Below, one piece after another: positions 1 to 3,000 of a stretch of DNA of 13,112 nt. The DNA is taken from the IMG/VR virus record IMGVR_UViG_2695420523_000015. One strand, 5' to 3'. This stretch comes from a virus (taxonomy: Duplodnaviria > Heunggongvirae > Uroviricota > Caudoviricetes). The position numbers are program-made. The number at the start of each line of letters is the position of its first letter. Position 1 is the stretch's first letter.

Positions 1-3000
1 GAACGCGAGGCATCGTCTTAACGAGGCACCGAGGCGTCGCATTCTTCAGATGGTTCAACCCTTAAGTTAGCGCTTATGGGTATTCTCCCCCAGCACTAAA
101 CCTGATCCGACAGCAGGAGTTTTCAATGAAACGTCCGAATATGCCCGTACAGGGGCAGGGCTTCATTCAGCCTGAAATCAGCCAGAACGATATATTGATT
201 CGCCACAAAGCAGAGTCGCGTATTGATTCCCGCGTTATTTCTGAGCGAGCAGGAATACAACACGAAAGTATCATTGCGACGATTAAATCTCATCAATCCA
301 GATTGCGCGAGCTTGGCTCACTGCCTCGCCAGTCAGTCAAGGAATTAACCTATTTGAAATCGGGAAAATCTGGCCGCAAGCGCGGTCGTCCTGAAATTAG
401 TTATTTGCTGAATGAGCTACAGCTTGACTATCTGTTACGCGTTATCCGTGGGCGTGACGCAGAACGTATCAACCAGTTCAAGCTGGATGTTACGAAGGCA
501 TTCGCGAAGCATCGCGCCGCTGAACCAGTCCGTCGCGAATATCTGCCAGGCTATCACGAAAGCCGTGACGGGCTTAAAGCACTGGGCGCAGAACGTCACC
601 ATTACATCAACCTTGCCCGCACTGAAAATCGCTTCGCTGGGCTGGCTGTAGGCGAGCGTCAGAGCGCGGGAGAGCAACAGTTAGGCTTACTGATAGTCAT
701 GCAGAAAATCGAGCAGGCAGCATTTAACGAGGCGATACAGAACGGCATGACACCGACCGAAGCGGTGCGGGAAGTTGCTCGCCGCATGGAGACGTTCGCC
801 AGCCTGATGACGTCAGCGCCGTCTCTGGGGGTGAATCATGCGTAATTATGATTTCGCCGCAATTATTCCGGTATCACCTGGCATTATTGGCAGATATGAA
901 ACGGGCGTTGTCAGCGCACGCGCACTGCATAAAGCGCTCGGTGTAGGCCGTGATTTCACCACCTGGATTAAAGGGCGTATTGAGGAATACGGATTTAAAA
1001 AAGGTGTGGATTTTGAGGCTGTAGAAAATTTGTACTTTGATTCCCAGAAACGGGGGAGCCAAAGTGTAAATATTGAACAGTTTGATTCTGGCTGGCACGT
1101 CGCCTGGGAGAACGTGAACATGCCTGACATCCGCAACGCTGCCGCCCTGTACATCGATACTGCGGATAAGTTCGCACAGGTGAGCATCAACCATGCTGAT
1201 TACATGCGCCATATCGTGAGCCATTTCGCCGCTGAGCGCATGAAACACGTTAAGCATTATCAGAAGGAGGCTTTATCAAATTATCGCGCTGGTGGCCCTG
1301 TACGGCGTGAATATCCGCATGATGCAGGAATGGCAGGCAAAACAAAGGCGACCACGAAAGGGTCGCCAGTGGAGATAAAGGAAATCAAGCGCATCACCAA
1401 CTATGCCATGAGTGTAGCTGGTGGACAAGGCTATCAGCCAGGCGGTCGGTTTTTAGTGGCTTTTAACCGCCGTGGGTATTTCTCGACAAAAGCCTCAAGG
1501 GCAAATCGTGTTGGCCTGGTGAGTGGCAGTGGATTAAGTAACAACCTCCTTTGCCGTTGTGCTTTTTCGCGCTGTCGCTCAAGTATGGATAATGCGATTT
1601 CCTGTAGTTCTTCATTTGTCATTGTCTGTACCCGTAAAGCGGTGCGCTGTAGTACCTCATATCACAGCGCAGGTATTTTTTATGGTTGTAATTTGCGTGA
1701 TGATTCAGGTTGCTTTGCGACACACTGCATAAACATAAATAACGTGATGTTATTATGTGCTTTCAAAGAAAACGCAGGTATTTTTCGCACAAACTTTTCT
1801 CGCAACACATCCGACCACTTAAGCAAAAAAGCGGCATATACTGAAGCTATCCCTTATAAAACGGGGATCGGGCGTAGGAACCCGTTTAACTGTAAGGCGA
1901 TAAATGACGCCAGAAGCGTCTTTTTTTCTGCCAGCGCTTTACGCCATATCAATGGCGTTGTGTATTGTGCGTACTCGTGCACCATCCAGTCATTTCACGA
2001 GTTGCATTTTGCACAGCGCCACCAGCAAACAATGGTGATGCTGGCGGGGCTACCGAAAGGTAGGCCGGAGTCCTTACAGTCCGGTATTCCTACCCCCGCC
2101 AGTGTCACCGCCCATTGTGAGCGTAGGAACTCCTGCGGTGACGTTATTCATCACTGTAAGGAGGCTGCCAACATGGCTACTACCCCTACCCTCGTACATT
2201 CTCAGACTGCCTTTATCTGGCGCTTTATCATCTTTGGCGCGTCAGAATCCCAAATCATCCACGTAACCGCCTGGACGGAACGCGAAGCGCGTAACCGTTG
2301 CCCGTCAGGTTGCGTTGCTGTATTCGCCGCCCGTATCCGTCAGGAGGCATCACATGGATAAAAACATGTTGATCGCCTCTTCTTTCGGGCTGTATGATGC
2401 CGAAGTCGCCCACATGGCGACCGGGTTTAGCAGCCTGAATCAGATAGCGGACAGCCGCTTACATTCCGATATGCGGTTTTTTTGTGTCCGTAAGCCTACC
2501 CATACCCGCATTATGGCGGGGCGTAACGGGGGAGCCTTTGCGCTCGCTGGTTCCTATCTGGCCAGTCTGCTAACCCCGTTACGTCTCGCCACCATGTTTA
2601 GCAGCGTAGTAGCGAGACTCCTTAATCAACAGATAGGAGCCTTTCACATGGCTGTATCCGCACGCACATCTGATTTTTGTCGCCCGTATCCGTCAGGAGG
2701 TGACTCATGCTTAAAACCTTCCGCGTCTTTTCCCGTGCTGTTAACAAGCGCGGCTATACCGTTGGCATCACGCAGAACGTGAAGGCCGAAAACGTCCAGG
2801 CTGCAATCAGCACAGTAATTAACAAATCAGCTAAAGCCGGTTTATCCGGCGTAATTATCCACGCAGTGACATGTATTCAGGATGAGGAGTAATTCATGTG
2901 TGATTTTTCCGATATGACTGTTGATGAAGCAGCAAAAAGCGCAATGCAGGCAGAACTTATTTGTTCTCTGATGATGGGTAACACAGGTGAAATGACTGAG

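Follow-up and report, generated by a model that had tools for sequence, protein, structure and literature searches.

Antisense RNAs of the C4 and CI type are known from the immunity regions of phages P1 and P7 (immI) and of P4, in which the region comprises PLE, seqA, the CI RNA or seqB, seqC and kil/eta. Single modules of this kind are textbook material, can be detected with Rfam models and have been published for islands of the phage-inducible chromosomal island (PICI) type. For Gram-negative PICIs, the literature already reports Rfam C4 and isrK matches as "immunity repressor RNAs" in the so-called Bro zone, and it describes that P4 eta is translated from an upstream promoter, which makes transcription insensitive to immunity (PMC10111431). 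In Gifsy-1 of Salmonella, a short terminated IsrK RNA, described as a SeqA homologue, is complementary to a downstream C4-like RNA, and orf45, which runs through the C4 region, is translated and shows conservation of nucleotides but not of amino acids (PMC4825925). Here, a stretch of 13,112 nt from a virus of the Caudoviricetes (IMG/VR record IMGVR_UViG_2695420523_000015; in the following the window) was analysed. It very probably carries two complete, autonomous C4/CI-type modules in tandem on the plus strand (1836-2713), which would gate the replication operon of an element that, judged by its gene layout, is probably a PICI/P4-like satellite island; the modules lie in its regulatory Bro zone. 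All module features and the genes from Rha to the primase-helicase described below are on the plus strand.

A scan of the whole window against Rfam at gathering thresholds returned exactly two matches, both full-length, on the plus strand and to the C4 antisense RNA family (RF01695, gathering score 45). The first, C4-1 (2028-2115; 70.3 bits), is P4 CI-like and the second, C4-2 (2509-2596; 72.9 bits), which has the 3′ tail CCACCA, is P1/P7 c4-like. By blastn against phage records, positions 2417-2606 matched c4 of P1, P7, SJ46 and D6 with about 80% identity, and positions 2030-2191, the stretch from the C4 RNA to the kil start, matched P4 cI with about 70%. In the alignment with the annotated P7 and P4 records the units were collinear from the promoter through the start codon. 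The stretch 2033-2110 folds with −49.3 kcal/mol (z = −7.2), a value equalled by none of 200 shuffles, and C4-2 folds with z = −6.0; the minimum free energy (MFE) folds agree with the model on the C4 architecture, a long closing stem around two hairpins. Across 36 distinct sequences the C4 helices contained 93.9% standard pairs, with double-sided changes in 16 of the 27 pairs, and in this alignment, which was fitted to the model, the covariation score was 0.401, whereas shuffles gave 0.180 and slid registers no more than 0.134. Each module is an ordinary switch of the P1/P4 type and a new member of a known, curated family.

A first-pass annotation made from the sequence alone had proposed an antisense module of the P1 C4-icd or P4 CI-kil type upstream of the replication gene. 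This core proposal is borne out by the two covariance-model matches above the gathering score, by the homology to P4 cI and P7 c4 and by the covariation at six sites presented below, and the multi-stem leader structure it had drawn (2041-2102) is real and lies within C4-1. The annotation had seen one module in 1860-2710; that module is present, but there are in fact two independent ones, C4-2 having been overlooked together with its four targets. It had also held the target arrangement to be unlike that of P1 and P4. As the units are collinear with P7 and P4 and all pairing sites co-vary, the arrangement is instead the canonical one, in which sites a1 and b1 are followed by the C4 RNA with a′ and b′ and then by a2 and b2.

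Module 1 could be aligned with P4 over the whole unit, the shared features being the −10 hexamer, the a1 hairpin, b1, the terminator, CI, the a2 hairpin, b2 over the Shine-Dalgarno sequence (SD) and a start reading MATT... The putative −10 hexamer TATACT of a PLE-like internal promoter (1837-1842) lies 7 nt before the start of the isrK-model match (1849) and aligns with TATAGT of P4; the position of TAT..T is invariant in seven P4-type loci including P4. The IsrK/SeqA-like leader (1849-1927) was aligned with the seqA region of P4 and was matched by the isrK model (RF01394) at 1849-1926 with 50.0 bits, which equals the gathering score; in a permissive Rfam scan the c4-a1b1 model was also placed on it, under its gathering score. 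Within the leader, a1 (GTAGGAA, 1874-1880, in a hairpin loop) and b1 (ACTGTAAGG, 1889-1897) are present as exact words, and a clear intrinsic terminator follows (stem 1906-1920 plus T7, to 1927). In C4-1, the b′ loop occupies 2069-2080 (core TCCTTACAGT, 2071-2080) and the a′ junction TTCCTAC, which pairs with GTAGGAA and had escaped notice, occupies 2087-2093. Downstream, a hairpin (2104-2142), whose 5′ arm overlaps the 3′ arm of the C4-1 closing stem, holds a2 (GTAGGAA, 2123-2129) in its loop; the anti-SD motif CUCC (2131-2134) lies 3′ of a2; and the b2 target (2153-2164; ACTGTAAGGA, 2153-2162) overlaps the SD AAGGAGG of icd-1 at +37 from the C4 3′ end, inside the range of related modules.

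Several details of module 1 had been recognised correctly at the outset, among them the recurrence of GCGTAGGAAC...ACTGTAAGG at 1872-1897 and 2121-2162. The 8-bp hairpin at 2104-2142 (GTCACCGC/GCGGTGAC) exists and is kept through compensatory changes in nearly all of 32 related modules; P4, in which the arms read CTATCGCC/GGCGATAG, also differs from it in a compensatory manner. The loop TCCTTACAG (2071-2079) is the exact reverse complement of 2154-2162, and the complementarity really extends over 10 nt (2071-2080 with 2153-2162). Module 1 differs from P4 in its pairing specificity: the a sites read GTAGGAA instead of GTGAGAA and a′ TTCCTAC instead of TTCTCAC, while the b sites read CTGTAAGG instead of TTCACAGG and b′ CCTTACAG instead of CCTGTGAA.

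Module 2 resembles the immI region of P1 and P7, with about 80% identity over a1b1-c4-a2b2, the same promoter positions, the CCACCA tail and an Icd homologue downstream. Its putative sigma-70-like internal promoter (2369-2398; −35 TTGATC, 18-nt spacer, −10 TATGAT) ends 7 nt before the isrK-model start, and the hexamers keep their position in diverged relatives and in P7 (TTGACC / TATAGT). The IsrK/c4-a1b1-like leader (2405-2483; isrK 35.4 bits, c4-a1b1 29.7 bits), which was aligned with P7, contains a1 (TTAGCAG, 2427-2433, in a hairpin loop) and b1 (CAGATAG, 2441-2447) as exact words and ends in a terminator-like weak stem plus a T7 run (2477-2483). C4-2 has its b′ loop at 2551-2561 (core TCCTATCTG, 2552-2560) and the a′ junction CTGCTAA at 2567-2573. 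The hairpin GTCTCGC/GCGAGAC (2583-2619; z = −3.6 for 2580-2650), for which P7 has CCTGC/GCAGG in the same place, holds a2 (TTAGCAG, 2598-2604) in its loop and is followed by the anti-SD CUCC (2620-2623) and by the b2 target (2630-2639; CAGATAGGA, 2630-2638), which overlaps the icd-2 SD TAGGAG. At the a and a′ sites module 2 and P7 agree fully, whereas the b sites are CAGATAG instead of GATTGTG and b′ is CTATCTG instead of CACAATC (CUAUCUG and CACAAUC in the RNA). Downstream of icd-2 no Ant homologue (ant1/ant2) was found, but three small open reading frames (ORFs) and then the primase, so the locus does not appear to be an immI operon, although module 2 is homologous to P1 c4-icd and would work like it. 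The isrK-model matches on both leaders also recall the IsrK/orf45 (STnc1160)/anrP locus of Gifsy-1, which differs in that the antiterminator regulator gene anrP, and not icd and replication genes, lies downstream and in that IsrK was shown to be an activator (PMC4825925).

In the MFE folds of both modules, the conserved CUCC after a2 pairs in cis with the SD (GGAG) of icd (2131-2134 with 2159-2163, and 2620-2623 with 2636-2639). This predicted pairing is a possible built-in SD-sequestering hairpin that could act together with C4.

Across the 13-kb window, each a and b word of both modules occurs at the expected sites only. For the wider comparison, a covariance model was built from five C4 sequences and used to search E. 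coli islands, species-representative genomes and IMG/VR contigs, which gave 46 matches with 32 distinct combinations of b′ and a′. The longest exact downstream match of the cognate b′ was at least 7 nt in 29 of the 32, between +29 and +38 counted from the 3′ end of C4 and ahead of an SD-like purine run and an ATG; non-cognate b′ loops gave a mean of 4.75 nt and reached at least 9 nt in 3 of 986 pairs. The match between the loop of module 1 and the SD is well above chance. Cognate a′ matched with at least 7 nt in 30 of the 32, at +0 to +7, compared with a non-cognate mean of 3.67 nt and 7 nt in 16 of 882 pairs. Upstream a1/b1 copies were present in most modules of the wider sample, and the hairpin with a2 in its loop, the 5′ arm of which is the 3′ arm of the C4 closing stem, was found with compensatory changes in essentially every module. 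Over these 32 specificities, which come from other loci, a′ and b′ co-vary with all four targets at fixed offsets. In close relatives specificity has switched at three sites together: in module 2 of locus L002, b′ CCUAUCUG has become CCCAAUUU with matching changes in b1 and b2, and in module 1 of locus L206, a′ UUCCUA has become UUCUCA with matching changes in a1 and a2.

Each C4 RNA precedes an icd gene. The first, icd-1 (2173-2361), encodes an Icd-like cell-division inhibitor of 62 aa (NF033153, 59.8 bits) with 40% identity to P7 Icd, and its body had no BLASTP match to P4 Kil. Comparison of 2173-2361 with loci L003 and L004 revealed a mosaic, in which the leader and the first codons (MATT..) are P4-like and the Icd-1 body is P1-Icd-like. 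The second gene, icd-2, has its ATG at 2648 and, by alignment with loci L001 and L002, is a remnant (2648-2713); intact in relatives, it encodes 56 aa (NF033153, 51.2 bits) with 45% identity to Icd-1. A deletion of 104 nt between 8-bp direct repeats CCGCACGC (microhomology; junction 2658-2665) has shifted the frame, so that the original C-terminus (..FVARIRQEVTHA*), which ends at TAA 2711-2713, is now in another frame, and the ORF from 2354/2648 ends out of frame at 2782, within the next gene. Only coding sequence of icd-2 was removed; C4-2 and all its targets are intact.

The 20-nt element CGCCCGTATCCGTCAGGAGG that had been reported twice (2328-2347 and 2681-2700) is indeed identical at 20 of 20 positions. 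In copy 1, the icd-1 codons A-R-I-R-Q-E are followed by the SD that serves the coupled ATG 2354, and copy 2 lies in the icd-2 remnant. Since icd-2, where it is intact in relatives, also finishes with ..ARIRQE.., both copies represent a conserved 3′ end common to the two paralogous genes. Among the three ATGs supposed to be regulated (2173, 2354 and 2707), 2173 was named rightly, but 2354 and 2707 are coupled restarts and the second regulated start is 2648.

Both modules are crossed by nested ORFs. The eta-1-like ORF (838-2361, 507 aa), which crosses the leader and C4-1 and enters icd-1 in frame, contains an AntA domain (aa 25-68), a Phage_ASH match (PF10554, aa 334-455, E = 3e-19) and an Icd-like part (aa 459-502); the Phage_ASH match corresponds to nt 1837-2202, that is, to the translated RNA locus. 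The eta-2-like ORF (2354-2782) begins at an ATG that overlaps the icd-1 stop (ATGGATAA) and continues across the leader and C4-2 in the frame of the icd-2 ATG; its equivalent in locus L001 carries the annotation 'Icd-like protein' (154 aa). In 26 of 31 distinct modules no stop interrupts the icd frame upstream across the entire C4 RNA, the median open stretch being 372 nt compared with 95 and 28 nt in the other frames, and the eta-2 ATG lies exactly 294 nt before the icd-2 ATG, in frame and open, in all 14 loci that have an upstream icd. This spacing holds with a b′ loop that is 1 nt longer because the extra base is offset elsewhere, and since such compensating indels preserve the reading frame at the cost of the local amino acid sequence, PGAP labels these coding sequences (CDSs) 'frameshifted'. 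As judged from these comparisons, it is the frame and not the peptide that is kept, as in P4 eta/kil and Gifsy-1 orf45. P4 likewise has a long in-frame ORF (eta) through the RNA into kil and a primase operon downstream; unlike P4, the nested ORF of the window has an AntA/Bro-type domain at its N-terminus, is coupled to a Rha gene and leads into a P1-Icd-like body, and a second module follows. P7 has no eta-like ORF across its module (the frame is open for 36 nt only), whereas chromosomal versions have one.

CDSs that PGAP calls 'ash family protein' or long 'Icd-like' (154 to 550 aa) coincide with the translated seqA/IsrK-C4-seqC RNA locus. For annotation this means that the Phage_ASH family and these CDSs are probably in large part artefacts of translated RNA genes, or at most a ribosome-transit ORF.

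The occurrence of the modules was determined in complete Escherichia coli genomes (n = 5426), counting matches that cover at least 80% of the query. The stretch from C4-1 to the start of icd-2 was found in 26 genomes and the exact module 1 type in 16; a chromosomal P1-type module was present in 186 and occurs on many P1-like plasmids as well. Eleven tandem loci were inspected, which together displayed six module 1 and six module 2 specificities, and in none of them did a b′ loop cross-match the b2 of the other module (longest match 7 nt, usually 0-5). In IMG/VR, the exact C4-2 hairpin plus junction had no match, and a loose C4 pattern gave mostly chance matches in GC-rich DNA, of which the covariance model kept 22, none in close tandem. 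No P1-like plasmid with the b′ specificity of C4-2 was found when module 2 was compared with plasmids, the best identity being about 82% over the C4 region, besides one match of 88% on a 32.6-kb plasmid; with this specificity unshared by P1-like plasmids, there is no sign of cross-talk with known P1-type phage. The P1-like phages D6 and RCS47 were considered as further tandems and rejected, because each has a single c4-icd unit within 6 kb on either side of the c4 match.

Other arrangements were seen as well. Locus L197 (4118-4558; E. coli 2012EL-2448) has two P1-type C4 RNAs 352 nt apart, beside truncated icd fragments; the pair shares a′, differs in b′ (CTATCTG and CCCAATTT) and shows signs of recombination. 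Three loci (L199, L200 and L203) have two icd genes and one C4 RNA each, even with the search filters off, so two icd genes do not always mean two C4 RNAs. Their first icd, which lacks a C4 RNA, follows an AT-rich region with a long inverted repeat (gacttgaagtgcaagtcacc...ggtgacttgcacc) and stands beside a divergent YlcI/YnfO-family gene (about 2100-2270). From this layout it looks as if icd-1 would be controlled by a protein repressor and icd-2 by RNA.

No description of tandem modules was found in the literature searched, which does not disprove that one exists. The Gram-negative PICIs correspond to the island in having an integrase and regulator, Bro-network genes (Rha, AntA) with C4/isrK and then primase, DUF5906 and SSB, and the part of the source that treats them reports RNA matches but not tandem heterospecific pairs or a 294-nt coupling ORF (PMC10111431). 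The multicopy C4-like small RNAs of Acinetobacter baumannii (PMC5320573) share the C4 scaffold, variable a′ and b′ and processing from longer transcripts; unlike here, the copies are dispersed instead of standing side by side as modules with cis targets and icd, and their targets are unassigned. The recurrent, orthogonal and translationally linked tandem may be a modest architectural variant that is as yet undescribed. It adds no new class of mechanism, and what the comparison contributes is that enterobacterial satellites repeatedly bear two RNA switches in series with orthogonal specificities. As these specificities shift through co-ordinated substitutions at three to six sites, they form a natural library of orthogonal RNA-RNA pairs and a possible source of parts for synthetic RNA regulators. 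The frame-preserved, sequence-scrambled ORF that joins the modules would extend the principle of P4 eta, by which ribosome transit overrides RNA immunity.

The family identity and structures of the RNAs, the complementarity and covariation of their targets, the gene context and the conserved reading frames are direct observations, and together with the known systems they suggest the following scheme. In each module, a constitutive internal sigma-70 promoter would give a short IsrK/SeqA-like leader, which carries a1 and b1 as decoy or early targets and ends at the T-run terminator. Read-through transcripts would be cut to yield the C4 RNA as a stable molecule of about 77 nt that resembles a tRNA, by RNase P if homology with P1 is a guide, with additional 3′ trimming. 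Pairing of a′ with a2 in the hairpin loop and of b′ with b2 over the icd/kil SD would block translation of icd; the untranslated icd would then allow premature Rho-dependent termination, leaving the primase operon (3518-5341) silent in the quiescent island. Transcripts from an upstream induced promoter would escape, in that coupled translation from Rha through eta-1 and eta-2 to the ORF at 2707 crosses both RNA modules, as in P4 eta. Module 1 would gate icd-1 and module 2 would be the last gate for every transcript, and an opened module 1 may override module 2 through the coupled eta-2 ORF.

Some points weigh against this scheme. Homology is the basis for the RNAs as such and for their ends, for the part of RNase P, for dependence on Rho and for repression, with the processing, the translation block, the Rho termination and the read-through logic taken from P1, P4 and IsrK. 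P1, with a translation block and polarity, and P4, with control of termination, reportedly differ, and sequence cannot assign either mode to a given module. The −35 hexamer of module 1 is poor; the leader of module 2 scores under both Rfam gathering scores (isrK 35.4 and c4-a1b1 29.7 bits), and its terminator stem is weak. Moreover, with icd-2 reduced to a pseudogene, some decay of module 2 may have occurred in this island, and the open frames of related sequences are in part inherited and not independently maintained.

What the tandem as such is for can be answered only tentatively. It may be a device of two locks, in which two orthogonal C4 RNAs guard one replication operon in series via the 294-nt eta-2, the opening of lock 1 overrides lock 2, and immunity in trans is provided against two classes of rivals. 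If this applies, each internal promoter holds its own lock closed in the quiescent state, and the rapid combinatorial switching of b′ and a′ among E. coli islands is explained.

It is unlikely, though compatible with several features of the locus, that only one module works and that recombination between conserved icd/C4 sequences in mosaic islands has produced the tandem as a side effect, with the other copy a decaying passenger. The frameshifting 104-nt deletion in icd-2 would fit such decay, as would the 'frameshifted' label that PGAP gives to the second Icd-like CDS in several relatives; the truncated icd fragments and two P1-type modules of L197 resemble recombination debris, the perfect 20-nt repeat is DNA homology usable for recombination, and the islands are mosaic, with a P1-like Icd-1 under a P4-like leader. 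Yet full six-site complementarity of both C4 RNAs is present in all 11 tandem loci, and specificity has been switched repeatedly, to six types per module, with each switch needing co-ordinated changes at three or more sites. In addition, the 294-nt in-frame link between icd-1 and icd-2 persists in 14 of 14 loci, those with compensating indels included, and the deletion in the window spares C4-2 and its targets.

That the C4 RNAs act mainly in trans on a helper phage or on competing satellites, for exclusion or defence rather than self-repression, is improbable as their principal role, although it would be compatible with the proposed gating of the replication operon. P1/P7 C4 and P4 CI do give superinfection immunity in trans (PMC5320573), two specificities would broaden the range of excluded elements, and a′ of C4-2 (CUGCUAA) is identical to that of P7. 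Against this stand the perfect cognate cis targets of each RNA at canonical positions and the b′ specificity of C4-2, which was found in no P1-like phage or plasmid of the collections and had 0 exact matches in IMG/VR.

There is very little to suggest that the conservation stems from an Ash/Eta-like protein (PF10554), with the RNA stems and complementarities incidental to coding. The Phage_ASH match to the 838-2361 ORF, the 'ash family protein' and long 'Icd-like' CDSs covering the region and the conserved open frames would all agree with a protein, but the RNA helices are held by double-sided compensatory changes, intermolecular covariation connects six sites in hypervariable loops, compensating indels save the frame and scramble local amino acids, and orf45 of Gifsy-1 is conserved in nucleotides and not in amino acids (PMC4825925); on the simplest interpretation, what counts is that the stretch is translated and not which peptide results.

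Scarcely credible is the original version, in which one RNA uses a second arm ACTCCTGCGG (2129-2138) to pair with the 20-nt repeats and control ATGs 2354 and 2707: the element is exactly repeated 6 nt ahead of an ATG both times and CCGCAGGAGT does match CCGTCAGGAG with one bulge, but 2129-2138 is mRNA leader outside the C4 RNA, its GCGG forms the 3′ side of the conserved hairpin around a2, the leftover match of anti-SD (CUCCU) to SD (AGGAG) is not above chance and fits any strong ribosome-binding site, CUCCU pairs locally with the icd-1 SD in the MFE fold, and the repeat encodes the Icd C-terminus and the SD of the next ORF at the coding 3′ end of paralogous genes with 45% protein identity. 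As the ACTCC motif stays unchanged where relatives have GGGG or GGGGG for GGAGG in the repeat, and P4-type kil modules keep ACTCC and lack the repeat, pairing with the repeat as an RNA target is unsupported.

The Bro zone and the replication zone of the island lie inside the window. Upstream of the modules, the stop of a Rha-family gene (126-845) is overlapped by the ATG of the 838-2361 ORF. Downstream, the operon proposed to be under module control (2707-5341) comprises small ORFs at 2707-2892, 2896-3105 and 3150-3341 and the primase-helicase (3518-5341; profile matches to D5_N/Pox_D5/DUF5906). The integrase is outside the window and was seen in near-identical islands of E. coli, which sit in the chromosome adjoining yicC and have the gene order integrase, helix-turn-helix regulator, Rha, AntA fragment, 'ash', two icd genes, small ORFs and primase, followed by SSB, a ProQ/FinO-like protein and PerC. 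One E. coli strain in which the island is intact is STEC2018-553 (NZ_CP075665, 3516.1-3518.3 kb). Among primase-anchored loci from one genome per species, a C4 RNA was found in only 5 of 72, so this replication gene and the RNA module do not form a fixed pair.

In the window, the SSB gene (5833-6282) neighbours an ORF at 6299-6766 that encodes a ProQ/FinO-domain protein (ProQ 56.5 bits, FinO 56.3 bits, both under the NCBIfam cut-offs). FinO-domain proteins are chaperones of structured antisense RNAs, and the protein of the island could therefore help the C4 RNAs to pair with their targets.

The remaining part of the window (6800-13112) matches E. coli chromosomes whose annotation lists three regulators of the PerC family, an antiterminator Q family protein, a YeeE/YedE thiosulfate transporter and IS2; at least 80% coverage of this part was reached in no complete E. 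coli genome. A Sulf_transp ORF (9056-10294) and a GH15-like ORF (11955-13034) lie here, past the replication zone of the satellite.

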